A DNA stretch of 35,705 bases from a virus. Taxonomy: Duplodnaviria > Heunggongvirae > Uroviricota > Caudoviricetes. This document shows, piece by piece, positions 1 through 33,085 of this stretch. The DNA lies in IMG/VR virus record IMGVR_UViG_2698536687_000005; one strand, 5' to 3'. The translations under genes and the position numbers were made by a program. The notes under the pieces are model-generated. The model did not search any database. It was not told the DNA's origin and worked only from the letters and a program-made list of their open reading frames with translations. Within the stretch, counting starts at the first letter, position 1, and every line of letters begins with the position of its first letter.

Positions 1-1053
1 TTACGGGGTAATGCCAACCGCTGCCGCCACTTTGTCGCCACTTGGCAGCGTTGCCAGAGGATTGAAACGGAGCGCCGTTTCCAGATGATCCGGTGCCAGA
101 TGTGCGTAACGCATAGTCATTTTTATATCGTGGTGTCCGAGAATTTTTTGTAAGGCCAGAATGTTTCCACCCGACATCATGAAGTGCGCCGCAAACGTAT
201 GGCGCAGAACGTGTGTGAGTTGACCGCGAGGGAGCACGATAGACGTTTTTTCCATCACGGATAAAAATTGAAAATAGCAGTCTGTGAAGAAATTGAACCC
301 ATCAAGCGCCATGATCTCTTCGTAAAGCTCTTTACTGATAGGGATGCTTCTGTTTTTCTTCCCCTTCGTTCTGACAAAGGTAATTCGGTATTTGGTCACC
401 TGTGAGCGAGTAAGATTTACGGCTTCACGCCAGCGTGCGCCTGTGCTTAAGCATATCTTAACTACCAGTGCCAGAATTGGGTCCTGACGTTTGCAATCAG
501 CCAGCAATTCAACAATCTGCTCATGGGTAAGCCATGCCATCTCTTTTTCTGCGATGGTGAATTTTCGCATGTTCTCCAGTGGGTTCGGATACGACCATTC
601 GCCCAGACGGGATAGTTCGCTAAAAACACTACTTAGATAGCTTTGCTCCAGGTTAATGGTGACCGGGCTTGCTCCTTTCTTCCATTTCTCGCTGAAGTAG
701 ATCTCGCCTGTCAGGCGTTTATCTCGATAGTGGGCAAACATTTTAGAGGTGAGATCGGTTGCAAGAGGATTGCCCAGAGCGTCAACCATCAACAGCAATT
801 TGTCATAGACATGCTGCCCAGCTGTCAGAGATTTACCATGTAGTTTGAACCATAGTTCAACCACGTCTTTCAGTGTTCGACGATCCACTGATTCACCCAG
901 CCAGGGCTTTGCTTCGGTTTCTTCCATCGTGTGACGCTCAAAAGCCAGAGCTTCGCCTTTGGTGGCGAATTGTTTACGCACACGACGTCCACTACGTCCG
1001 GCGGGGTAACATTCGCAAAGCCATTTTCCTGTGGTGAGTTTTCGTACTGCCAT
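1..1053 (-). CDS. int: Tyrosine integrase (P2-type)
   Basis: 350-aa ORF; C-terminal catalytic signature 'HVLRHTFA ... GHHDIKMTMRYAHL' (R-H-R-Y); sits at prophage end next to immunity region; stop codon at positions 1-3. Confidence 0.9.
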   Translation of the reverse strand: MAVRKLTTGKWLCECYPAGRSGRRVRKQFATKGEALAFERHTMEETEAKPWLGESVDRRTLKDVVELWFKLHGKSLTAGQHVYDKLLLMVDALGNPLATDLTSKMFAHYRDKRLTGEIYFSEKWKKGASPVTINLEQSYLSSVFSELSRLGEWSYPNPLENMRKFTIAEKEMAWLTHEQIVELLADCKRQDPILALVVKICLSTGARWREAVNLTRSQVTKYRITFVRTKGKKNRSIPISKELYEEIMALDGFNFFTDCYFQFLSVMEKTSIVLPRGQLTHVLRHTFAAHFMMSGGNILALQKILGHHDIKMTMRYAHLAPDHLETALRFNPLATLPSGDKVAAAVGITP

Positions 1054-1136: not shown

Positions 1137-2813
1137 CTAAGCAACATGCAGTTCATCGTTGGCGGAAGTTGCTGCTTTGCGCTCTTGCTCAATCGCCAGT
1201 GACTCTCTATATTCTTTCGCTTCCGCAAACATTGTCCATTGTGCGTTGATGTTCATATCTTCAATAACAGACTTAATTTCTTTAATATTTACGTTGAAAA
1301 ACTCTTTTCGTGAGTTAATTTTATTGACCTGTTTTTCGTTGAAGACTTTATGCAGATGATTTTCTAATGATGGTGCATCATCACTATAAATCATCGCATG
1401 AACATCGAACGAAAAAGGAACACTAGCATCACCGAGTTCACGAACACGATCAAGTGGTTCAAGGCGGCGTGTCATTCCAATTTTATATACATCTTCGCCA
1501 AATGAGCCAATATTACTAATTATATAAACGTGGCCTGATCTAGTTTGTTGAGCCATAGAAATAGCTCGTTGGTTTTTAGCTTCAGCTTCTTCATATTTTA
1601 ACTGTAGTTCAGCTATTTTTTGCTCTAAAGCTAAGCGTTGTTCTTCATTTGCAAGCATAAGCTCTTTTGTTGCTTTATTTATAGCTTGCTGAATAGCTTT
1701 CTCTTCTTTTTCAGCTTCTTTTATCGCTTTTTCATACTCCCTACGAGCTCTTTCCTCTTCACGAAGTTGTTCTTTAATCCTTCTTTGCTCTTCTTTTTCT
1801 TCGAGCATAATTTCATTAACTGCAACTCCCCATTTTAGCTCGTTGAGTCGAGCTTGAAGATAGATGTCACTTATTTTTGCGGACCTAAAGGCAGAACCAT
1901 TGTAATTTACAAGTTGAAACGCATCTTTTATCTCTTGGGAAAGTTTTCCAAAATTGTTGTGTTTGACTTTTGATAAAATACTGTCAACTCTTCCATTGAA
2001 GGCATCTAAAACAAAGTTGATAGCAGTATTACGCCTGTTTTGTTCAACATAATCACACGAAGCAGCTTTATTAGTTTTTATTAATGATTTTGTTAACTCC
2101 CTGGCTTTTTGTAATTCCTTACCTGCATCTGTAAACTCATAATTTTCTGCCAATTCATCGAGAACGCTACGGTTAGGGATGATCCATTCATCACCATAAC
2201 CTTCAATTTTATTTTTCATTGATTTGGCAACTGCTTCATATTTTTCTGCAAACTCTTTAGCTTCATATGCTGAACCAGCAATCTCTTTTGCTCTTTCTTC
2301 TGCATCGGAAATAATTTTCACTGCATTGTCATTAGCATTTGAGATCAGCTCATTTGCTTTACTATTGGCATTATCAAGACGTTCTTTAGCTTTCAGGCGT
2401 GCATCGCGAGCGTCTTTAGTAATTGCTATAGCTTCGCTATTAGCGTTGCTTATTTTTATCTGAGCTTGATAATTTGCTTCGTTTACTGTCTTAGCAGCCT
2501 TTATTTGGGCTTCTTCTATTTTTTGCCTGGCTATTGAGTCTGCATTTTTTATCTTATTCTCTGCTTCCATCACTGCGCTGTGCAATTCTACGTATTGCCA
2601 TAATGGCGCAGCTCGTCCTTCAAGCTCTGATAGATCTCGTACAGTCTGTGCTAATTCTTCTTGATTTTCTTTCAGTTGGTTGGAAAGGGCTATGTTGTTA
2701 TCTGTCAAGGTATTTATAGCCGCTTTATGTTTTTTGCTTTGCTTAAATAATATTACAGCTAGAATGGGGGTGAGAAATGCTAATAAGAATATAACGATGG
2801 AAAATGAATTCAT
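1137..2813 (-). CDS. Membrane-anchored coiled-coil protein with DUF4041-like region and C-terminal T5orf172/MUG113 (GIY-YIG-like) domain; candidate defence/abortive-infection cargo
   Basis: 558-aa ORF. N-terminal hydrophobic helix (SIVIFLLAFLTPILAVILF), about 300 aa of K/E/A-rich heptad-like sequence, C-terminal 'HVYIISNIGSFGEDVYKIGMTRRLEPLDRVRELG...FSFDVHAMI...LENHLHKVF' matching the T5orf172 signature. AT-rich relative to backbone. AAGGA RBS 8 nt upstream. Confidence 0.75.
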   Translation of the reverse strand: MNSFSIVIFLLAFLTPILAVILFKQSKKHKAAINTLTDNNIALSNQLKENQEELAQTVRDLSELEGRAAPLWQYVELHSAVMEAENKIKNADSIARQKIEEAQIKAAKTVNEANYQAQIKISNANSEAIAITKDARDARLKAKERLDNANSKANELISNANDNAVKIISDAEERAKEIAGSAYEAKEFAEKYEAVAKSMKNKIEGYGDEWIIPNRSVLDELAENYEFTDAGKELQKARELTKSLIKTNKAASCDYVEQNRRNTAINFVLDAFNGRVDSILSKVKHNNFGKLSQEIKDAFQLVNYNGSAFRSAKISDIYLQARLNELKWGVAVNEIMLEEKEEQRRIKEQLREEERARREYEKAIKEAEKEEKAIQQAINKATKELMLANEEQRLALEQKIAELQLKYEEAEAKNQRAISMAQQTRSGHVYIISNIGSFGEDVYKIGMTRRLEPLDRVRELGDASVPFSFDVHAMIYSDDAPSLENHLHKVFNEKQVNKINSRKEFFNVNIKEIKSVIEDMNINAQWTMFAEAKEYRESLAIEQERKAATSANDELHVA

Positions 2814-6184: not shown

Positions 6185-8595
6185 GCCATGCCGATATGAG
6201 CAACTGCTGCGGCTTTAACGAGGCTGCCGCATCGTTCTCATGGAACAGCCCGAAAAAGGCCATTAACCCTTATCTGGACCCGGCGGAAGTTGCGCCGGTT
6301 TCTGCGCTTTCAAACCTGATCACTCTGTACGCTGCCGATAACGAGCAGGAACAACTGCGCCGCGAGGCACTGAGTGATCAGGTCTGGGAGCGTTATTTCT
6401 TTAATGAATCCCGTGATCCTGTCCAACGCGAAATAGAGCAGGATAAGCTCATTAGCCGGGCAAAGTTGGCGCATGAGCAGCAGCGTTTTAACCCGGACAT
6501 GGTCATTCTGGCAGACGTCAGCGCCCAGCCCTCCCATATCAGCAAGCCGCTGATGCAACGTATTGAATACTTCAGCAGCCTGGGCAGGCCAAAGGCTTAT
6601 TCCCGCTATTTACGTGAGACGATTAAGCCATGTCTGGAACGACTGGAGCATGTACGCGACAGCCAGCTATCTGCATCTTTTCGTTTTATGGCAAGCCATG
6701 TAGGGCTGGACGGCCTGCTGATTCTGCCTGAAATGAGTCAGGATCAGGTGAAACGCCTGTCTACCCTTGTCGCTGCGCATATGAGCATGTGCCTTGATGC
6801 AGCTTGTGGTGATTTGTATGCCACCGATGACGTTAAGCCAGAAGAAATCCGCAAGACATGGGAAAAGGTGGCAGCGGAAACCCTGCGTCTGGATGTCATC
6901 CCGCCTGCGTTTGAGCAACTCCGTCGGAAAAGAAACCGCCGTAAACCCGTGCCCTATGAACTCATTCCGGGTTCGCTGGCGCGTATGTTGTGCGCCGACT
7001 GGTGGTACCGGAAATTATGGAAAATGCGTTGCGAATGGCGGGAAGAGCAGTTGCGTGCTGTCTGCCTGGTCAGCAAAAAAGCATCTCCCTATGTCAGCTA
7101 TGAAGCCGTGATGCATAAACGTGAGCAGCGCCGCAAGTCACTGGAGTTTTTCCGTTCTCATGAACTGGTGAACGAAGAGGGCGACACGCTGGATATGGAA
7201 GACGTGGTAAACGCCAGCAGCAGCAACCCGGCGCACCGCCGCAATGAGATGATGGCCTGTGTTAAAGGTCTGGAGCTTATCGCGGAAATGCGCGGTGACT
7301 GCGCCGTTTTCTACACCATTACCTGTCCGTCACGTTTCCATTCCACGCTCAATAACGGCAGACCAAACCCAACCTGGACAAATGCGACGGTAAGACAAAG
7401 CAGCGATTATCTGGTCGGCATGTTTGCTGCATTTCGTAAGGCGATGCACAAAGCCGGGTTGCGCTGGTATGGCGTGCGGGTGGCTGAGCCGCATCATGAC
7501 GGTACAGTTCACTGGCACCTGTTGTGTTTCATGCGCAAAAAAGACCGCCGCGCCATTACTGCATTGTTGCGTAAGTTTGCCATCCGTGAAGACCGCGAGG
7601 AACTGGGTAATAACACTGGTCCACGCTTTAAATCTGAGCTGATAAACCCGCGCAAAGGAACGCCGACAAGCTACATCGCGAAATACATCAGTAAGAACAT
7701 TGACGGGCGTGGTCTGGCTGGCGAGATCAGCAAGGAAACGGGTAAATCCCTGCGTGATAACGCTGAATACGTTAATGCCTGGGCGTCTCTGCATCGTGTT
7801 CAGCAATTCCGCTTCTTTGGTATTCCGGGACGTCAGGCTTACCGTGAACTTCGCTTGCTGGCTGGTCAGGCGGCAAGGCAACAGGGTGACAAAAAAGCAG
7901 GTGCGCCGGTACTGGATAACCCGCGTCTTGATGCCATTCTGGCTGCTGCTGATGCTGGTTGTTTTGCCACCTACATCATGAAGCAGGGCGGCGTACTGGT
8001 TCCCCGCAAATATCACCTCATCAGAACCGCTTATGAAATCAACGAAGAGCCAACCGCCTATGGCGATCACGGTATTCGTATTTATGGCATCTGGTCACCC
8101 ATTGCAGAGGGCAAGATCTGCACTCATGCAGTGAAGTGGAAAATGGTTCGTAAGGCCGTTGACGTTCAGGAGGCGGCAGCCGACCAGGGCGCTTGCGCCC
8201 CTTGGACTCGTGGCAATAACTGTCCCCTTGCTGAAAATTTGAACCAACATGAGAAAGATGAATCAGCAGATGGGGATACCAGAACGGACATTACCTGCAT
8301 GGATGACAAGGAATTGCACGATTACCTGCACAGTATGAGCAAAAAAGAGCGCCGGGAACTGGCAGCAAGATTGCGCCTGGTTAAACCGAAACGGCGTAAA
8401 GACTACAAACAGCGAATTACAGAGTATCAGCGTCAGCAGCTCGTCTATGAACTGAAGTCCAGAGGATTTGATGGCAACGAGAAAGAGGTCGATTTGCTCC
8501 TTTGCGGTGGCAGTATTCCGTCAGGAGCAGGCCTGCGTATCTTCTATCGGAACCAGCGTTTGCAGGAAGATGATAAGTGGCGGAACCTGTATTAA
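6181..8595 (+). CDS. A: Replication initiation endonuclease, P2 gpA family (rolling-circle)
   Basis: 804-aa ORF; P2 A-like; Y-x-x-K rolling-circle motif '[12 protein letters not shown]'; start overlaps dam stop (ATGA). Confidence 0.85.
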
Positions 8596-8687
8596 TCACA
8601 CGGGTTAACAATTCGTGCTCTTAATAATACCAGGCATATCAGGCTGATGAACGTAAAAAAACGTTTTACATCAGTAAGATTATTATA

Positions 8688-8707
8688 TACTGTAAATATA
8701 AACAGTG
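8688..8707 (+). promoter_or_regulatory. Consensus LexA (SOS) box TACTGTAAATATAAACAGTG
   Basis: CTGT-N8-ACAG with AT-rich spacer at 8690-8705, about 45 bp upstream of the small ORF starting at 8749. Confidence 0.6.
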
Positions 8708-8748
8708 GTTATATGTACAGTATTGCGTATGGTGTTATAGGAGGAAAG

Positions 8749-8937
8749 ATGCAGGACTATTTTTTGGAGTCTTTGAAGCTCCAGCGCATTGATTTTTTTC
8801 TTAAGCTTGTAGCGGCTAGTGAGTGTAGTGATGAAGAGAAGGGGCTAGCTCTGCAGTGGGTTTCTGAATTGACTGATGAGTTGATGGCGAAAATTCGAAG
8901 CCATGAATACAGTAGGTCGATGGATGTAATCAGTTGA
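8749..8937 (+). CDS. Small SOS-box-associated protein; candidate Tum-like antirepressor or other SOS-induced cargo
   Basis: 62-aa product from ATG at 8749 with AGGAGGA RBS at 8739-8745; AT-rich; downstream of LexA box and upstream of a terminator hairpin. Confidence 0.45.
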   Translation: MQDYFLESLKLQRIDFFLKLVAASECSDEEKGLALQWVSELTDELMAKIRSHEYSRSMDVIS

Positions 8938-8970
8938 GCTTGTTTCGTTAGGACTTGATAAGGGAACCGA

Positions 8971-8996
8971 AAAGGGGCATTAAGCCCCTTTCTCAT
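8971..8996 (+). terminator. Intrinsic terminator hairpin between the small ORF and the convergent lipoprotein gene
   Basis: Stem AAAGGGGC/GCCCCTTT (8971-8978, 8984-8991) with 5-nt loop, followed by T-rich TCTC. Confidence 0.5.
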
Positions 8997-9004
8997 AAGT
9001 TGAT

Positions 9005-9304
9005 TTAGTTGTTACCCAAAGAGCCGGCCATGGCTGCATATTTAATTTCTTCGCTGGGTATTTCAGGATGTAGTTGAATTTGCCTGATGATATAGCCAGG
9101 AACTTCTTCACTCCACAGTTTCGCCGCGTCCTTACAGACCTTATACGCGAAGTCTCTATTCTCAAAGGCATAGGATTTTCCGTATGCATATTGCTGACAG
9201 GCATGAACATAAGCTCCGAAGTCGCCGTCTTTATCTGGCAAAGCACATCCAGCTAAGGCTATGATGATTGCTACTAACGTAAAGGAGAAAGTTATACGTT
9301 TCAT
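9005..9304 (-). CDS. Small lipoprotein, unknown function (cargo)
   Basis: 99 aa; signal peptide with lipobox 'LAGC' (MKRITFSFTLVAIIIALAGC); AT-rich. Confidence 0.65.
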   Translation of the reverse strand: MKRITFSFTLVAIIIALAGCALPDKDGDFGAYVHACQQYAYGKSYAFENRDFAYKVCKDAAKLWSEEVPGYIIRQIQLHPEIPSEEIKYAAMAGSLGNN

Positions 9305-9360
9305 GGTCTCTTTCTAAGCGTTTAGCATTATTTAACTAAGGGGTATCTGCCGTGATTTGG

Positions 9361-9389
9361 TAGTCCCTGATATATATTCTCAGGGACTA
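9361..9389. promoter_or_regulatory. Inverted repeat TAGTCCCTG-N11-CAGGGACTA between the two lipoprotein genes
   Basis: 9-bp perfect arms around AT-rich spacer ATATATATTCT; candidate operator or terminator/promoter element. Confidence 0.4.
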
Positions 9390-9412
9390 TGCTGAAGTAG
9401 CTTTAATTTTGA

Positions 9413-10219
9413 TTATTTAGAAAGGTACTTATCTCTAAGTTGATTCAGTCTGTCAGCATCGCGTTCTGAAAACTCGGCGTCACCATAGATCGATTTCCCA
9501 TCTGCGTCTTCAAGGCCAATGACTGTGACGGTAAATATAGCATCAGCCGGAACTTTAAGTTTTCCCCAATCAGAGTATCTATTAGGGGCTAATTTCCAGT
9601 TGGCTTTCTCACCTGGTTCCAGACCTCCAGAAATTTTATAGTTGAAGACGTCAGAGAACCAAGGGACGCTTCTTCCTGGGCTGGCAATAACTCCTTTGAA
9701 GAATACTCTGGCAACCGCTTTGTCTGTTCCGTTTTCAACGCTAATATCCAGAATTGGCTGATCATTGCCGTAATCCTCTTTCTGGAAATAAAAACGGGAA
9801 CGTTCGACCTTGAAGGCTTTCATTTTTTCCGCAGCCTGTGTTGCAGAGGTTTGTTTGGCTTCCAGTTCTTTTATTTCTTGCAGAGCCTGTTCTTTCTCTC
9901 TCTTCTCACGCTCAAGGCGAATAGTTTGTGCGTAATTTATAACCTCATCACCAGTTTTACCTTCCAACGCTGACTTAATTTTTGTTTCGTAGACGTCCCC
10001 AGAAGACGTTCCAGCCTGCATTAGCTCTCTCATGTTGATTTGGCTAAAGGCAACGACTTTAACTGCATCATCAAACTGAGCTTTTTTATCTGCAGGTAAG
10101 GACTCTCTTACTTTTTGAATGGACTCTTTCATCGACTGATCGCTTGATGCATCGATCTTCGGTTTGTCACAAGCAGTAAGCAGCAGAGCAAAAGCAATTA
10201 CGCCAGTTAATTTCTTCAT
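9413..10219 (-). CDS. Lipoprotein with central coiled-coil and C-terminal domain of unknown function (cargo)
   Basis: 268 aa from ATG at 10219 (track ORF extends to 10291); signal peptide 'MKKLTGVIAFALLLTAC' with lipobox; charged coiled-coil segment 'EREKREKEQALQEIKELEAKQ'. Confidence 0.65.
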   Translation of the reverse strand: MKKLTGVIAFALLLTACDKPKIDASSDQSMKESIQKVRESLPADKKAQFDDAVKVVAFSQINMRELMQAGTSSGDVYETKIKSALEGKTGDEVINYAQTIRLEREKREKEQALQEIKELEAKQTSATQAAEKMKAFKVERSRFYFQKEDYGNDQPILDISVENGTDKAVARVFFKGVIASPGRSVPWFSDVFNYKISGGLEPGEKANWKLAPNRYSDWGKLKVPADAIFTVTVIGLEDADGKSIYGDAEFSERDADRLNQLRDKYLSK

Positions 10220-10247
10220 ATCCCTATCCCAATCGTAAAAAAACAAG

Positions 10248-10268
10248 GCTAATCCTAACAGGATTAGC
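10248..10268. promoter_or_regulatory. Palindrome GCTAATCC-N5-GGATTAGC upstream of the 268-aa lipoprotein gene
   Basis: 8-bp perfect arms, 29-51 bp upstream of start codon at 10219; candidate operator. Confidence 0.4.
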
Positions 10269-10740
10269 GGGCATGACAAACTCATAGCCATATAGGTGTG
10301 CTGTATAAATTAGCGGGATGAGAAAGCCTGCACAGACCCTCATGTTGAAACTTGATTTTAGCTCAAAAGAGCTGACACTAAATAACTGCGCGGAATAATG
10401 CTCCACTTTCGGTTAGCCCTTGGCCCTTGCTGGGTAAGGCGTGGGGCCGTTTTCTTCGCCTGATCCTGCTGTATCTGGCCTACAGTATGTTGTCCTTACG
10501 CGACATGCCACATGTCAGTAAACGGCAGGTGTAGCAGTATTAGACGCAGCTATTTAGTGTGTATTAAGCTGGCTCATATTTATGACTGGTTTCAAGGTTT
10601 GACCGATTTCATGTCATGCATGTCTATGCTGCATGAGTTCGCATGATCGTTTGAGGATCGGTTTGGCTAAGACATGCCAGAACTGGCGGGCTTTTGCTCA
10701 TGTCATGCAGGTGCATGAAAACTACTACATAAAGCGGGCA

Positions 10741-10759
10741 GGCGTGGCGGGGATACGAG
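10741..10759. other. Candidate cos site (P2/186-type cohesive end)
   Basis: GGCGTGGCGGGGATACGAG; first 13 nt match the 186 cohesive-end sequence as recalled (GGCGTGGCGGGGAAAGCAT); lies between gene A side and Q as expected. Confidence 0.45.
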
Positions 10760-10869
10760 CGCGCGCTCATGGTTGAATTAATGAAATTATGGTGTTAAAT
10801 AGGCTAGCTTTTTAAGTCGTGAATATTCAATTTTTCAACTCATTTTTTTCATAGGGAGAAGTAATTGAC

Positions 10870-11568
10870 ATGGTTATGTTAGTGGATGACTGTCCACGAT
10901 GTGGATCACAAAAAATAGCGTTTGATGTTAATGGGCTGAATTGCACTAGGGTTTACAATGCATTGGGCGGGGGTAAAACATACGAGTACGAGGTCTATTG
11001 TGTTTGCCGAGAGTGTCATAAAACGACAATGTTTCTTTGCAGACCTTTAACGAAAAATAAAACTTTAGATGGCTATAATTGGGAAAGTGGAATATTCGGC
11101 TTAAAGGAAGTTGCAGAGGTTGTTAGGCCTATATCACCAGCAGACTTAGCAGTAGAGGAGCCACCAGAGTTCTTACCTGAGCATATCAATAGTGCATATG
11201 AGGAAGGGGCGAAATGTTTGGCTATAGGTTGTTATAATGCAGCAGCAACCATGTTTAGGCTTTGCCTTGATTATGCCACAAAAGGACTTCTTCCTGATGG
11301 GGAGCAAGGGCCTGCGCAAAAAATAAGGAGAAGCCTAGGGTTAAGAATGGAGTGGTTATTTGATAATCATCTACTGCCTGAAGCTTTAAGGGAACTAGCT
11401 GAATGCGTTAAAGATGACGGAAATGATGGAGCGCATGAAGGTATTTTGGATAAAGCTGCTGCTGAGGATCTTGAAGATTTTACCTATCTTTTTTTAGAAC
11501 GGCTTTACACTGAACCTCAACGCCTTATCGAAGCCAAGACAAGGCGTGAACAAAGAAGAAACAAATAA
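10870..11568 (+). CDS. Zn-ribbon + DUF4145 (HEPN-like) protein; candidate single-gene defence/Abi cargo
   Basis: 232 aa; N-terminal 'CPRCGS ... CVCRECH' four-Cys arrangement; C-terminal 'YEEGAKCLAIGCYNAAATMFRLCLDYATK ... NDGAHEG' resembling DUF4145; AT-rich promoter-like upstream region; GGGAGAAG RBS. Confidence 0.6.
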   Translation: MVMLVDDCPRCGSQKIAFDVNGLNCTRVYNALGGGKTYEYEVYCVCRECHKTTMFLCRPLTKNKTLDGYNWESGIFGLKEVAEVVRPISPADLAVEEPPEFLPEHINSAYEEGAKCLAIGCYNAAATMFRLCLDYATKGLLPDGEQGPAQKIRRSLGLRMEWLFDNHLLPEALRELAECVKDDGNDGAHEGILDKAAAEDLEDFTYLFLERLYTEPQRLIEAKTRREQRRNK

Positions 11569-26868: not shown

Positions 26869-27171
26869 ATGAGCGATAAGCAGACTGAAAAGACCATTCA
26901 ACTGGATACCCCTATCAAGCGCGGTAAAACAGAAATTACCGAAATTGTGCTGCGTAAACCGCAGTCCGGTGCGCTGCGCGGTACACGCCTGCAGGCCATT
27001 ATGGATATGGATGTGAACGCGATGATGACCGTGATCCCCCGCATCTCCAGCCCGGCACTGACCGCACAGGAAATTGCAGAGATGGACCCGGCAGATCTCA
27101 CCGCCATGTCGGTTGAGGTTGTCACTTTTTTGTTGAAGAAGTCGGTGCTTGCCGGTTTACCGACAGCCTGA
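26869..27171 (+). CDS. E: Tail assembly chaperone E
   Basis: 100 aa; contains T6G slippery site at 27126-27132 near its 3' end. Confidence 0.85.
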   Translation: MSDKQTEKTIQLDTPIKRGKTEITEIVLRKPQSGALRGTRLQAIMDMDVNAMMTVIPRISSPALTAQEIAEMDPADLTAMSVEVVTFLLKKSVLAGLPTA

Positions 27172-27305
27172 CGGTTGACGATCTGGTGGCAGATATCGCC
27201 ACCATTTTTCACTGGCCGCCATCCGTTACTGACGTTATGCCGCTGACCGAAGTGCTGGAATGGCGGTATAAAGCGATTCAGAGAAGCGGGGCCAATGATG
27301 AGTGA
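26869..27305 (+). CDS. E': E+E' frameshift-extended tail chaperone (programmed -1 frameshift at TTTTTTG)
   Basis: The -1 frame after 27126-27132 is open for 57 codons (VEEVGACRFTDSLTV...RSGANDE) ending at TGA 27303-27305, inside the start of T; total about 144 aa. Confidence 0.7.
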
Positions 27306-30300
27306 TAATAACCTGCGCCTTCAGGTCATTCTTAATGCGGTTGACAAACTCACCCGTCCATTCCGTGCTGCACAGGCCAGTTCGAAAGAGCTGGCTGGCG
27401 CAATCAGAAACTCCCGTGACGCATTAAAGCAACTCAATCAGGCGGGTAACAGCCTGGAAAAATTTCGCAAGCTGCAGGCCGATAACAAGAAGTTAGGCGA
27501 CAGGCTGAACTATGCCAGACAGAAGGCTAATTTGCTTAGCTCTGAGCTGGAGGCGATGGAACAACCATCACAACGGCACCTTGTGGCTTTAGGTCGGCAA
27601 ACGCTGGCAGTCCAACGCCTGGAAGAACAACAAAAATATTTGCAGAAGCAAACGGCGCTTGTGCGTGCAGAACTGTACCGGGCGGGAATTTCTGCGAAAG
27701 ATGATGCGGGAGCAACTGCCCGTTTAGCCCGTGAAACATCACGTTATAACCAGGAATTGTCGAAACAGGAGGCGCGCCTGAAGCGACTGGGGGAAGCTCA
27801 GCGCAGGATGGATGCGGCGCGTGCCAGTTATGCCCGTTCGCTGGAGGTGCGCGATCGTATTGCAGGAGCCGGAGCCACCACCACGGCTGCAGGGCTGGCA
27901 ATGGGTGCGCCAGTGATGGCGGCAGTAAAAAGCTATACCAGCATGGAAGATGCCATGAAAGGTGTGGCAAAGCAGGTCAATGGTCTGCGTGACGATAATG
28001 GCAATCGCACTGCACGTTTTTATGAAATGCAGGATGCCATCAAGGCTGCCAGCGAACAGTTGCCGATGGAAAACGGTGCGGTGGACTTCGCTGCACTGGT
28101 TGAAGGTGGGGCGCGCATGAACGTCGCAAACCCTGACGACAGCTGGGAAGACCAGAAACGTGACCTGCTGGCCTTCGCCAGTACGGCAGCAAAGGCGGCA
28201 ACAGCCTTTGAGCTGCCAGCGGATGAACTGTCAGAAAGTCTGGGGAAAATCGCCCAGCTCTACAAAATACCTACCCGCAATATTGAACAGCTCGGCGATG
28301 CGCTGAACTATCTGGATGATAACGCCATGTCGAAAGGGGCGGACATCATTGATGTGATGCAACGTCTGGGCGGTGTGGCTGACCGTCTGGATTATCGTAA
28401 AGCGGCGGCGCTGGGTTCCACCTTCCTGACACTGGGCGCTGCGCCGGAGGTTGCAGCCAGTGCAGCAAACGCGATGGTGCGTGAATTGTCCATTGCCACC
28501 ATGCAAAGCAAGAGTTTCTTTGAAGGAATGAATCTGCTGAAACTCAATCCTGAAGTGATTGAAAAGCAGATGACGAAGGATGCGATGGGAACTATCCAGC
28601 GCGTACTGGAGAAGGTGAACGCACTGCCGCAGGATAAACGTCTGTCTGCCATGACCATGTTGTTTGGTAAAGAGTTTGGCGATGACGCGGCGAAACTGGC
28701 AAACAACCTGCCGGAACTGCAGCGCCAGCTAAAACTGACAGCGGGCAATGATGCGCTCGGCTCCATGCAGAAAGAATCCGACATTAACAAGGACTCACTT
28801 TCTGCGCAGTGGTTGCTGGTCAAAACCGGAGCGCAGAACACCTTCAGCAGCCTGGGCGAAACGCTGCGCCAGCCGCTGATGGATATTCTGTACACGGTGA
28901 AAAACATCACGGGGGCGTTGCGCCGCTGGGTGGAAGCTAACCCGGAACTGACAGGCACACTGATGAAAGTAGCCGCTGTGGTGGCTGCGGTTACCGTAGG
29001 CCTCGGCACCTTAGCGGTGGCGCTGGCTGCAGTGCTGGGGCCGCTGGCAGTGATCCGTCTGGGATTCTCTGTGCTGGGTATCAAAACGTTACCTTCCGTT
29101 ACGGCAGCAGTAACTCGAACCAGCAGCGCGTTGTCCTGGCTGGCTGGCGCACCACTGGCACTGCTGCGACGCGGGCTTGCTTCATCGGGCAACGCCGCAG
29201 GTTTACTTACTGCGCCGTTGTCGTCTTTGCGCCGCACGGCATCACTGACGGGAAATGTCCTGAAAACTGTAGCAGGTGCGCCGGTTGCACTTTTGCGGTC
29301 TGGATTATCCGGTTTACGTGCTGTTGCTGTGATGTTTATGAATCCTTTGGCGGTACTGCGCGGTGGACTGGTCGCCGCAGGCACGGTGCTGCGAGTACTG
29401 GCATCTGGTCCACTGGCGATGCTGCGCGTTGCCCTGTATGCCGTATCTGGTCTGTTAGGTGCTCTGCTCAGTCCGATAGGTCTTGTGGTTACTGCACTGG
29501 CGGGCGTGGCGCTGGTTGTCTGGAAATACTGGCAACCCATCACCGCATTTCTTGGTGGCGTGGTGGAAGGATTCAAAGCGGCGGCAGGTCCCGTCAGTGC
29601 AGCATTCGAACCGCTTAAGCCCGTGTTCCAGTGGATTGGCGACAAAGTACAGGCGCTGTGGGGCTGGTTTACTGATCTGCTGACGCCCGTTAAGTCGACC
29701 TCTGCCGAACTGCAGAGTGCAGCGGCAATGGGGCGGCGATTCGGAGAGGCACTGGCGGAAGGGCTGAATATGGTCATGCATCCGCTGGACTCCCTGAAAT
29801 CCGGCGTTTCCTGGTTGCTGGAGAAACTTGGCATTGTCAGTAAAGAGGCCGCAAAGGCAAAACTGCCGGAAAGCGTGACGCGTCAGCAACCTGCGACGGT
29901 GAATGCAGACGGTAAAGTGATGATGCCATCGGGTGGTTTTCCGTCATGGGGATATGGTTTTGCGGGGATGTATGACAGCGGCGGGTATATCCCGCGCGGG
30001 CAGTTTGGCATCGTCGGTGAAAACGGGCCGGAAATTGTTAACGGCCCGGCAAATGTAACCAGCCGGAGAAATACAGCTGCACTGGCTGCCGTTGTCGCCG
30101 GAATGATGGGCGTTGCTGCCGCGCCAGCAGAGCTTCCACCGTTGCACCCTTTGGCACTTCCCGCGAAAGGCGGTGAAGCGATGGTGAGTCGCGCAGCCAC
30201 TGTGCCGCTCGTTCAACAGATTGAGGCACCGACGCAGATCATCATTCAGACGCAGCCAGGACAAAGTGCGCAGGATATTGCGCGGGAGGTGGCACGCCAG

Positions 30301-30375
30301 CTTGATGAACGTGAACGCAGGCTGAAGGCAAAAGCCAGGAGTAACTACAGCGATCAGGGGGGATACGACGCATGA
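27295..30375 (+). CDS. T: Tail tape measure protein (P2 gpT family, expanded)
   Basis: 1026 aa; coiled-coil N-terminal third, hydrophobic repeat-rich middle, position between E/E' and U. Confidence 0.88.
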   Translation: MMSDNNLRLQVILNAVDKLTRPFRAAQASSKELAGAIRNSRDALKQLNQAGNSLEKFRKLQADNKKLGDRLNYARQKANLLSSELEAMEQPSQRHLVALGRQTLAVQRLEEQQKYLQKQTALVRAELYRAGISAKDDAGATARLARETSRYNQELSKQEARLKRLGEAQRRMDAARASYARSLEVRDRIAGAGATTTAAGLAMGAPVMAAVKSYTSMEDAMKGVAKQVNGLRDDNGNRTARFYEMQDAIKAASEQLPMENGAVDFAALVEGGARMNVANPDDSWEDQKRDLLAFASTAAKAATAFELPADELSESLGKIAQLYKIPTRNIEQLGDALNYLDDNAMSKGADIIDVMQRLGGVADRLDYRKAAALGSTFLTLGAAPEVAASAANAMVRELSIATMQSKSFFEGMNLLKLNPEVIEKQMTKDAMGTIQRVLEKVNALPQDKRLSAMTMLFGKEFGDDAAKLANNLPELQRQLKLTAGNDALGSMQKESDINKDSLSAQWLLVKTGAQNTFSSLGETLRQPLMDILYTVKNITGALRRWVEANPELTGTLMKVAAVVAAVTVGLGTLAVALAAVLGPLAVIRLGFSVLGIKTLPSVTAAVTRTSSALSWLAGAPLALLRRGLASSGNAAGLLTAPLSSLRRTASLTGNVLKTVAGAPVALLRSGLSGLRAVAVMFMNPLAVLRGGLVAAGTVLRVLASGPLAMLRVALYAVSGLLGALLSPIGLVVTALAGVALVVWKYWQPITAFLGGVVEGFKAAAGPVSAAFEPLKPVFQWIGDKVQALWGWFTDLLTPVKSTSAELQSAAAMGRRFGEALAEGLNMVMHPLDSLKSGVSWLLEKLGIVSKEAAKAKLPESVTRQQPATVNADGKVMMPSGGFPSWGYGFAGMYDSGGYIPRGQFGIVGENGPEIVNGPANVTSRRNTAALAAVVAGMMGVAAAPAELPPLHPLALPAKGGEAMVSRAATVPLVQQIEAPTQIIIQTQPGQSAQDIAREVARQLDERERRLKAKARSNYSDQGGYDA
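29131..29440 (+). repeat. About five tandem ~60-bp (20-aa) repeats inside T
   Basis: Recurring 'GAPLALLRRGL / TAPLSSLRRTA / GAPVALLRSGL / NPLAVLRGGL / GPLAMLRVAL' units. Confidence 0.6.
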
Positions 30376-30857
30376 TGATGGTGCTGGGATTGTACGTGTT
30401 TATGCTGCGCACCGTTCCGTATGAGGAACTGCAGTATCAACGCAGCTGGCGACATGCGGCAAACAGCCGGGTTAACCGACGCCCGTCAACGCAGTTTCTG
30501 GGACCGGATAACGACATGCTGACGCTTTCTGGCGTTCTTATGCCGGAGATAACAGGCGGCAGGCTGTCGTTGCTGGCACTGGAGCAGATGGCAGAACAGG
30601 GGAAAGCATGGCCCCTGATTGAAGGCAGCGGCACGATTTACGGCATGTATGTGATTGAGGGACTGAATCAGACTAAAACGGAGTTTTTCCGCGACGGTAT
30701 GCCGCGCCGGATTGAGTTCACCCTGTCGCTCAAACGAGTGGATGAATCCCTGTCCGATATGTTCGGTGATCTCAGTGCGCAACTGAATAATCTGCAGGAA
30801 ACGGCAACATCTGCTTTAAGCGATATCAGTAAAACGGTGGGAGGGCTGCTGTCGTGA
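30372..30857 (+). CDS. U: Tail protein U
   Basis: 161 aa; position and size as P2 gpU. Confidence 0.85.
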   Translation: MMMVLGLYVFMLRTVPYEELQYQRSWRHAANSRVNRRPSTQFLGPDNDMLTLSGVLMPEITGGRLSLLALEQMAEQGKAWPLIEGSGTIYGMYVIEGLNQTKTEFFRDGMPRRIEFTLSLKRVDESLSDMFGDLSAQLNNLQETATSALSDISKTVGGLLS

Positions 30858-31954
30858 ATTTCAGCTCTGAACTGCTTAACAAGGGCAACAAAACTCCCGC
30901 ATTCAGCATCAGTATTGAGGGCAGGGATATCACTACTGTGCTGGACAACCGCCTGATGGGGCTTACGCTGACGGATAACCGGGGCTTTGAAGCGGACCAG
31001 CTTGATCTGGAGCTGGACGATGCTGACGGAAAAATCGTGCTGCCGCGCCGTGGTGCGGTCATTACGCTGGCGCTGGGCTGGAAGGGGCAGCCGCTTTTCC
31101 CGAAAGGGGCATTCACGGTGGACGAGATTGAACACACTGGCGCACCGGACCGCCTGACTATCCGGGCGCGAAGTGCTGATTTTCGGGAAACGCTGAATAC
31201 CCGCCGTGAAAAGTCGTGGCACAAGACCACGGTCGGGGAAGTGGTGAAGGAAATAGCCGCGCGGCACAAACTGAAGATGGCATTGGGTAAAGACCTGTCA
31301 GATAAACCCGTGGAACATATAGACCAGACCAATGAGAGTGACGGCAGTTTTCTGATGCGGCTGGCGCGCCAGTACGGTGCTATTGCGTCGGTGAAAAATG
31401 GCAATCTGTTATTCATCCGGCAGGGACAGGGTAAAAGCGCCAGCGGTAAACCACTACCGGTTATCACTATCACACGTAAGGACGGCGACAGTCACCGCTT
31501 TACCCTGGCAGATCGCGGAGCCTACACGGGCGTAATTGCCAGCTGGTTGCATACCCGCGAACCCGCGAAGAATGAAAGCACCACGGTGAAGCGTAAGCGC
31601 AGGACTAAGAAGCAGAAGAAAGAGCCGGAAGCGAAGCAGGGCGATTACCTGGTGGGTACAGATGAAAACGTGCTGGTACTTAATCGCACCTATGCCAACC
31701 GGAGCAACGCCGAACGGGCGGCGAAAATGCAGTGGGAACGCCTGCAACGCGGCGTTGCGTCATTCTCGCTACAACTGGCAGAAGGTCGGGCAGATCTCTA
31801 CACGGAAATGCCAGTGAAAGTCAGTGGCTTTAAACAGCCGATAGATGATGCGGAATGGACCATTACGACTCTGACGCATACCGTCAGCCCCGATAACGGT
31901 TTTACAACCAGTCTGGAGCTTGAAGTGAGGATTGATGATTTCGAAATGGAATGA
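30854..31954 (+). CDS. D: Tail protein D (late control D family)
   Basis: 366 aa; GTG start overlapping U stop; P2 gpD-like. Confidence 0.85.
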   Translation: MNFSSELLNKGNKTPAFSISIEGRDITTVLDNRLMGLTLTDNRGFEADQLDLELDDADGKIVLPRRGAVITLALGWKGQPLFPKGAFTVDEIEHTGAPDRLTIRARSADFRETLNTRREKSWHKTTVGEVVKEIAARHKLKMALGKDLSDKPVEHIDQTNESDGSFLMRLARQYGAIASVKNGNLLFIRQGQGKSASGKPLPVITITRKDGDSHRFTLADRGAYTGVIASWLHTREPAKNESTTVKRKRRTKKQKKEPEAKQGDYLVGTDENVLVLNRTYANRSNAERAAKMQWERLQRGVASFSLQLAEGRADLYTEMPVKVSGFKQPIDDAEWTITTLTHTVSPDNGFTTSLELEVRIDDFEME

Positions 31955-32044
31955 TTCTTCGCAATGGAGAACTTTTAAGTTTGCAAAATGGAATAATGCG
32001 GTATCATTATTGTGAATTTAGCAAAAATGGGGAGAACTCGAAAA

Positions 32045-32263
32045 ATGATGATTTGCCCACTGTGTGGAAGTGCCGCCCATACTCGCAGCAGTTTTCAGGT
32101 ATCTTCATTGACCAAAGAGCGTTACAACCAGTGCCAGAACATTAACTGCAGCCATACTTTTGTTACCCATGAAACTTTTGTTCGTTCGATTGCAACGCCA
32201 AAAGAGTCAAATCCGGTTCAGCCGCATCCAATGAAATCAGGACAGGTGGCGCTCTCTCTTTGA
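32045..32263 (+). CDS. ogr: Late gene transcription activator Ogr/B (zinc finger)
   Basis: 72 aa from ATG at 32045; 'CPLCGSAAH ... YNQCQNINCSHTF' C-x2-C ... C-x4-C arrangement as in P2 Ogr. Confidence 0.85.
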   Translation: MMICPLCGSAAHTRSSFQVSSLTKERYNQCQNINCSHTFVTHETFVRSIATPKESNPVQPHPMKSGQVALSL

Positions 32264-32331
32264 CTCTGCCGCCATTTTTTCACCATTGCTAAAAACAGTG
32301 ATTCTAAAAATCATTGTTTTCGAATAAGTGC

Positions 32332-32862
32332 CTAGCATCCGATAAGGTCGTTTGCTTCAAACTTTGGCAAATGATACTCATTTGCCAAATGTTCGTTATC
32401 TTTGTTATTTTTTAAATATTTGTATTTTAATGTATTTTTATCTTCATTGTATGATAATAAAGCTTCCCCGATAGGAACATCACGCCACCCTATTTGAATG
32501 CAAAGAAGGATAGTGACCTGCCCTTTATGGTTTAGCTTACCCGAGAATGTAAAGGTGCATTTCTCTTCATCAAGGCTTGTTGATGAACAGTTAGTGATAG
32601 TCCCTCCCAAATTGCCGACGACATCTGATGACTCAATTTTTATGCTTATTATATTCTCATTATGGTTGCGAATATCACCAACATTGTTCCAGTTTTTTGA
32701 GACTAGAAGCTCAATAATTCTTTTTTTCTTAAGGCGTTTTACTTCCTTTGCCTGTGGTGAGTATAAGAGGTATGCGGGTATGCCTGCTACAATCGTTGCT
32801 ACAATTGCCAGCACAGCTAATATAATGGTAACCATCTGAAGTCCTTGTTCTTCTGCCGCCAT
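32332..32862 (-). CDS. Membrane-anchored protein of unknown function (cargo between ogr and host junction)
   Basis: 176 aa; N-terminal TM helix (LQMVTIILAVLAIVATIVAGIPAYLLY); strongly AT-rich unlike flanking phage and host DNA. Confidence 0.6.
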   Translation of the reverse strand: MAAEEQGLQMVTIILAVLAIVATIVAGIPAYLLYSPQAKEVKRLKKKRIIELLVSKNWNNVGDIRNHNENIISIKIESSDVVGNLGGTITNCSSTSLDEEKCTFTFSGKLNHKGQVTILLCIQIGWRDVPIGEALLSYNEDKNTLKYKYLKNNKDNEHLANEYHLPKFEANDLIGC

Positions 32863-32930
32863 TTTGCCGCCAAAGATAAGTAAAGTAGTTTCTAACTTAT
32901 TGATTATGGAATGGAAGAATAGCAGGCAAC

Positions 32931-32973
32931 AAAAAACCCATCAACCTTGAACCGAAATGGCGGGGTTGATGGG
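32931..32973 (-). terminator. Intrinsic terminator on minus strand downstream of ybjL
   Basis: 10-bp stem CCCATCAACC/GGTTGATGGG (32937-32946, 32964-32973) preceded on plus strand by AAAAAA (a U-tract on the minus-strand transcript). Confidence 0.55.
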
Positions 32974-33085
32974 CTCCACAAAATGGGGACATCAAAGAAA
33001 AGCAGTGGCACTAATTAAGACTGATGCCCTGCGGAAAAGTTCTGCGGTTGTGCAAAAAAATTTCATTTTCAGGGCAACTTCAGTT

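Follow-up and report, generated by a model that had tools for sequence, protein, structure and literature searches.

Gene X, an AT-rich open reading frame between ogr and the host junction in the 35,705-nucleotide stretch of DNA analysed here (the window), is dispensable cargo (a 'moron') of a P2-like phage whose integration site is the 3' end of rybB; it occupies the ogr-attP-int interval, which varies among P2-like phages. It is a real gene, it is borne by the phage, and it can be assigned both to a protein family and to a fold class; we hold this structural and genomic description with high confidence. The existence of remote homologs and a confidently predicted fold show that the gene is truly coding. 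Its open frame is also improbable by chance: of 5000 shuffles of the 662-bp region, 2 gave a frame of 176 codons or more, and the stop-codon frequency yields P ~2e-6 for one frame.

A cargo gene at the rybB attachment site

The features on which the argument rests are the following, with positions counted from the first letter of the window.

1..1053, minus strand: integrase gene (int), whose 3' end holds the second exact arm-type repeat (22-40)
32045..32263, plus strand: ogr, late-gene activator of 72 aa, convergent with gene X
32264..32331: arm copy 1 (relic), after ogr; its first ~57 nt are ~80% identical to the single arm of KP12 and CFT073
32267-32285, minus strand: degenerate arm-type repeat in copy 1, from a motif search
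32332..32862, minus strand: gene X, 176-aa ORF with an ATG start in the program-made ORF list (RefSeq WP_023147539.1, 'hypothetical protein')
32332..32835, minus strand: alternative frame of gene X, 167 aa, starting at Met10 (ATG 32835-32833)
32782..32808, minus strand: 12-nt in-frame tandem repeat in gene X, coding for ATIV-ATIV inside the transmembrane (TM) helix
32852..32927: arm copy 2, adjoining the core
32854-32872, minus strand: tandem repeat TGGCGGCA-N3-TGGCGGCA in arm copy 2, spanning the first ATG of gene X
32893-32905: IHF-consensus-like site AATCAATAAGTTA in arm copy 2
32928..32941, minus strand: att core ATGGGTTTTTTGTT, the last 14 nt of rybB
32928..33006, minus strand: rybB, host sRNA gene (Rfam RF00110, 105.3 bits, E 2.6e-22, gathering score 40, full model 1-79)

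Alignment shows that the core is common to attB of K-12, attL of E. coli NT1F34, attR of the window and of CFT073, and attP of both the metagenomic contig L019 and phage KP12. Since it lies on the host side of gene X, all DNA up to and including position 32927 is phage, and this includes gene X as well as the 65 nt upstream of it. The sRNA gene rybB is intact at attR, lies on the same strand as gene X and ends 65 nt upstream of it; P2-like prophages of E. coli W, B and Crooks are known to integrate at this gene (PMC3032704). The comparison with the rcdA-ybjL interval of K-12 had been set beforehand as the check on phage or host origin, and it decides for the phage: in the K-12 annotation rybB is all that the interval holds, and gene X is absent from this empty site. 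The preliminary description had correctly placed the gene between ogr and the host junction, but the hairpin that it read as the ybjL terminator is that of rybB.

The excised form of the element was found as a metagenomic contig of 33,274 bp (L019), which reads CI, int, attP, X and then the convergent ogr and gpD, and whose int is 99% identical to that of the window. As this contig holds gene X between attP and ogr, the gene travels in the phage genome; the earlier proposal of prophage cargo at the att-proximal end is thus borne out by the excised order as well as by the position of the core. In the excised genome int stands directly upstream of gene X across attP and in the same orientation.

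Close relatives of the phage do without the gene. In CFT073 a P2-like prophage sits at the same core, and the ogr stop is followed by an arm of ~75 bp and then by the core, without gene X, so that the window has 588 bases more. KP12, an isolated Klebsiella phage with 96% identity across gpD, ogr and the first arm, uses the same core, and its ogr leads through a 165-bp attP into int, again without gene X. Both relatives share the ogr-attP-int module with the window and lack just the 588-bp block. Among 5426 complete E. coli genomes, gene X is present in 3 and the uninterrupted CFT073-type ogr-arm-core junction in 1119. A wider collection of assemblies indexes the exact protein in 483 blocks, and all 10 of the places inspected show the order ogr-X-(rybB)-ybjL. 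The gene, its spacer and ogr are identical among prophages that differ in gpD at 27-49 of 1101 sites (2.5-4.5%) and in ybjL at up to 24 sites, which fits a recent spread of the ogr-X-arm module, as judged from sequence at loci that were chosen for an identical protein.

The base composition of gene X sets it apart from both of its surroundings, as the preliminary description had stressed: its GC content of 0.375 (0.367 for the extra block at 32264-32851) compares with 0.55 over 27000-32263, which holds late genes, and with 0.49 in the host part of the window. Along the GC profile, values stay at 0.35-0.40 over 32200-32950, rise to 0.54-0.60 in the tail genes leftward and are ~0.5 in the host genes rightward. 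Gene X therefore has what marks P2-like cargo, in that it lies inside an att-bounded element, is present or absent among syntenic relatives and differs in composition from the backbone. Like the old/tin and Z/fun genes, it is variable, low in GC, dispensable and located in the interval from the tail (D/ogr) through attP and int to CI; unlike them, it is placed within a duplicated recombination arm, on that side of attP where ogr lies and not in the classical gpA-gpQ or tail-fibre hotspots, and has no homology to any characterised cargo gene. Recent surveys count the int-att and tail-CI intervals among the minor hotspots for cargo and defence genes in P2-like phages (PMC13586616; 10.1101/2024.10.15.618418).

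The prophage of strains NT1F34 and NT1N28 has shrunk to int-DUF4041-IS1-CI ... 'D-ogr-X, with gene X intact. In the NT1F34 remnant (L001/L012), IS1 lies between the DUF4041 gene and CI, a deletion fuses CII' to 'gpD, and both att-proximal cargo genes are kept. Retention of an intact gene X in degraded prophages amounts to two independent cases only, NT1F34 and the Huaxiibacter prophage described below.

The DUF4041 gene of the window (1137-2813, minus strand) lies between int and CI and encodes a 558-aa protein with DUF4041 (SNIPE in precomputed Pfam matches) and T5orf172/MUG113 domains. In KP12 this position is taken by a gene with the annotation 'chromosome segregation ATPase', a likeness of position, and the X-bearing excised contig lacks the DUF4041 gene; the latter is a second variable cargo gene and a likely defence candidate. 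Before the portal-side genes, in the classical old/tin cargo hotspot of P2-like phages, the window encodes a DUF6694 protein (9413-10291, minus strand) and a DUF4145 protein (10870-11568, plus strand).

The protein, its relatives and its predicted fold

The 176-aa minus-strand ORF named in the preliminary description is found exactly in the ORF list, and its translation has one hydrophobic segment at residues ~10-34 (maximum of 2.85 over a 19-residue Kyte-Doolittle window) that is followed by KEVKRLKKKR. The shorter, 167-aa form from Met10 is, judging from the sequence, the likelier product. An AAGGA motif (32846-32842) stands 6 nt 5' of the Met10 ATG, the 167-aa version is annotated in several GenBank entries (P0003), and the homolog P0018 begins at the TM segment. 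The annotated first ATG (32862), for its part, falls between two units of the arm repeat, and CFT073 and KP12 have ATT there; we rejected it as the likely start, given its place inside the repeated arm and its lack of conservation among relatives without gene X. The ATIV repeat is present in 1, 2 or 3 units among database variants (172, 176 or 180 aa), and because the number of 12-nt units differs in this way, the length of the TM segment varies by slippage. A scan of the plus strand for terminators also returned a perfect 12-bp inverted repeat with a 3-nt loop (TTTGGCAAATGA/TCATTTGCCAAA, 32363-32389) in the 3' coding part of the gene.

An exhaustive HMMER search of 1.84 billion representatives found eight remote relatives of 112-185 aa with 24-42% identity. 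One N-terminal hydrophobic segment with a K/R-rich stretch is found in X and in six of the eight, the two without it being the shortest (112 and 147 aa), and the family has in common the motifs W-x-N-x-G, G-x-I-T-N-C, G-K-x3-K-G, G-W-R and L-P-R-F. A word-indexed search of 5.8 billion clusters returned only the E. coli cluster of X itself, to which a profile added 3; the metagenome scan gave a single locus with gene X, the excised contig, and the GTDB scan for relatives also gave one. Scans of IMG/VR found no relatives, tblastn with X and three of its homologs matched none of 50,697 phage records, and scans of X and its homologs against Pfam, PHROGs, PADLOC and NCBIfam yielded nothing above threshold. 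A profile search of PDB sequences returned only matches with E > 0.4, and a literature search with the RefSeq accession found no paper. Weak matches to Glug (0.14), TcaA_3rd_4th (P0021 only, 23.9 bits against a cut-off of 27) and PycTM (0.03) were judged to be noise or driven by the TM segment.

Where the genomic context of a relative could be read, it was always that of a phage or prophage, and two of the relatives adjoin an att site. In Huaxiibacter chinensis a homolog with 42% identity occupies the same slot, in the order ybjL, rybB, X and a decayed P2-like prophage; ogr of this prophage (L018) carries a nonsense codon while the homolog of X is intact. The decayed prophage at rybB (8499-11475 of that locus) has a fused gpV/gpD fragment, and inside the remnant lies a 508-aa gene with a SIR2_2 domain (9949-11475, GC 0.36), a probable further defence cargo. 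In Salmonella Paratyphi B a homolog with 25% identity overlaps the int stop (ATGA), where the lysogenic CI-int operon of a 186-like prophage ends; beyond the homolog come the att region and host genes. Drawn on the circular phage genome, E. coli gene X and the Salmonella homolog share the interval downstream of int and differ by the side of the core on which they lie. A third homolog (L016) lies beside terS/terL of an unrelated metagenomic phage. The X family is thus tiny, phage-restricted and new to annotation libraries.

All homologs are lower in GC than their neighbours. Given this, and given that a different genus has the 42% homolog in the equivalent slot, low GC is probably a trait of the family. 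The preliminary description had deduced recent acquisition from AT-richness; the recency agrees with the identical ogr-X-arm modules beside divergent gpD genes, but as a deduction from composition it is no more than half right and overstates the case.

AlphaFold run on the nine-row family alignment gave a model with pLDDT 85.6 and pTM 0.71, whereas the single sequence of X reached a pLDDT of 50. The model has a TM helix at 3-34, a helix at 38-53, eight strands that form a barrel and a short helix at 154-162; the layout is thus a TM anchor at ~10-34, a basic juxtamembrane helix at 38-53 and an eight-stranded β-barrel at 57-175, which gives a predicted shape to the soluble C-terminal domain that had been proposed at the outset. 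Foldseek of the model against PDB and BFVD found no match at E ≤ 0.001. Among the known systems nearest to X are the eight-stranded up-and-down barrels of avidin, calycin and Gid4 type; they differ from it in having 8-15% identity, no profile match and another cellular context.

Basic residues flank TM segments on the cytoplasmic side (the positive-inside rule). All seven full-length members have 0-3 K/R before the TM segment and 3-7 after it, an excess by which the rule predicts an N-out/C-in anchor with the barrel in the cytoplasm. We thus suggest that X is a single-pass inner-membrane protein with its N-terminus outside and its C-terminus inside. A cleavable signal peptide was considered and rejected, since the n-region, where there is one, is acidic, and the hydrophobic stretch runs over 24 residues with the K/R block after it.

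Duplicated attP arms and possible transcription

The 588-bp extra block is bounded by two diverged copies of the entire ogr-side attP arm, of which copy 2, next to the core, is presumably the functional one. The pattern TGGCGRCA-N3-TGGCGRCA occurs exactly twice in the window, at 22-40 in the 3' end of int and at 32854-32872, where 0.11 would be expected by chance; the repeats have an 11-bp period and are present on both attP arms. By analogy with the organisation of P2 attP, they are probably arm-type binding sites of Int, and the same comparison fits AATCAATAAGTTA as a putative IHF site. The simplest idea for the duplication is that gene X and an arm of its own were imported as one piece from a diverged phage that integrates at rybB. 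The locus offers a clean natural case of the insertion of cargo inside a recombination arm.

Integration swaps what stands upstream of gene X, from int to a host sRNA. The standard promoter scan found no promoter upstream of the gene on the minus strand; a relaxed scan gave a weak sigma-70-like TTGCCT-15-CATAAT (32929-32903) or TTGTTG-18-CATAAT, both within 32932-32903. The hairpin upstream of the gene in the lysogen is the rybB terminator (-23 kcal/mol), while in the excised genome it is a weaker one after int (-9.2 kcal/mol). Read-through from the strongly sigma-E-dependent rybB into gene X is conceivable.

Possible roles of the protein

The two effectors closest to X in architecture are the S-2TM-β proteins Cap15 (of CBASS) and OptE (of Panoptes), which disrupt the inner membrane in abortive infection (PMC12657218). 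X shares with them a soluble C-terminal β-barrel, a generic criterion, and departs from them in several ways. It has one TM helix, not two, by both hydrophobicity and the AlphaFold model; none of the nine X-family members gave a Pfam or PADLOC match to such proteins up to E = 10, except PycTM at 0.03; and it has no CD-NTase or mCpol partner, its neighbours and those of its homologs being ogr and rybB, int (Salmonella) or unannotated ORFs (L016). X is therefore not a member of the S-2TM-β family, and the similarity is one of architecture.

A second group for comparison is formed by T4 Imm, P22 SieA, HK97 gp15 and lactococcal Sie2009, small inner-membrane proteins of temperate or lytic phages that are encoded at accessory positions, act alone and often belong to orphan families. 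X would resemble these superinfection-exclusion proteins in being of the small inner-membrane type and in its accessory position; it differs from them in its lack of sequence similarity (PHROGs, Pfam and PADLOC negative) and in its predicted cytoplasmic β-barrel domain.

We tentatively favour, at somewhat less than an even chance, the view that X protects the lysogen against other phages at the inner membrane. X would be expressed in the lysogen, and its barrel would bind a phage-derived or infection-derived ligand or protein. Either the TM segment would then perturb the membrane once oligomerised, in a Cap15/OptE-like abortive infection, or X would block genome entry as in superinfection exclusion, with the TM segment as an anchor. 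The accessory, phage-borne position of the gene in a described hotspot, the locations of its relatives, its intact state in degraded prophages and the predicted topology speak for this view. The negative family searches, the single TM helix without a cyclase partner and the negative search for a convincing promoter speak against it, and the great rarity of gene X argues against a broadly useful defence. We may speculate further that X founds a new family of stand-alone anti-phage effectors with one TM helix and a cytoplasmic β-barrel, a single-gene relative or a convergent form of Cap15/OptE that senses its trigger directly without a cyclase; in this extended version integration would also rewire expression, the gene standing after int in the free phage and behind the sigma-E-dependent rybB in the lysogen, where envelope stress could feed its transcription. 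Taken whole, this extension seems to us a long shot.

The position next to rybB also bears on another explanation, in which X is a lysogenic-conversion factor unrelated to defence, whose tethered barrel would have a metabolite, lipid or protein of the host as its binding partner and would affect stress responses or the physiology of the envelope. Since integration leaves 65 nt between rybB and gene X, which follows it on the same strand, a coupling to the sigma-E/RybB circuit is possible; the two genes are co-directional in both E. coli and Huaxiibacter, the cargo position and low GC of the gene agree with such a role, and barrels of the calycin, avidin and lipocalin type do bind small ligands. 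The strength of the rybB terminator speaks against it, as do the Salmonella and L016 homologs, which are not beside rybB, and we consider a conversion factor unlikely, if still worth bearing in mind.

The excised contig suggests instead that X might serve the phage's own cycle, for example by excluding co-infecting phages in the lytic cycle or by tuning lysis or the state of the membrane. There CI, int, attP and X follow one another on one strand with only the weak hairpin between int and X, and the Salmonella homolog is translationally coupled to int. Being directly downstream of int across attP, gene X would be transcribed with CI-int, during the establishment of lysogeny or after excision, and integration would cut it off from that operon. 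Viable isolated relatives manage without X, and the gene is intact in defective remnants that can no longer replicate; a role in the phage cycle is accordingly one to which we give little credence.

These same remnants, two independent degraded prophages that have kept the gene, could also be read as the mark of a membrane toxin, or of an element of the addiction type, which would stabilise the end of the prophage and persist since its loss is costly. X is a small membrane-anchored protein, and one family member has the weak PycTM-like match (E 0.03). The gene has no antitoxin candidate, being flanked by ogr and rybB; its length of 167-176 aa and its folded barrel set it apart from type I toxins; and 1119 genomes have the same type of prophage without X, all of which makes an addiction element improbable.

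That X is a mere passenger, an ORF in decay or without function that came along with the duplicated attP arm, would suit its extreme rarity, the lack of a clear promoter and the near identity of the E. coli copies, by which selection is not measurable, but we regard this as very improbable given the open frame, the homologs at 24-42% identity that keep length, TM anchor, basic stretch and motifs, and co-variation in nine sequences that sufficed for AlphaFold to give a confident model.

P2-like prophages that integrate at rybB are very common, being present in about one fifth of complete E. coli genomes. At present, X is one more uncharacterised prophage membrane protein. Should it protect lysogens, the anti-phage repertoire would gain a minimal membrane effector made up of a single gene, and the ogr-attP-int interval of rybB-integrating P2-like prophages would be a slot worth mining.
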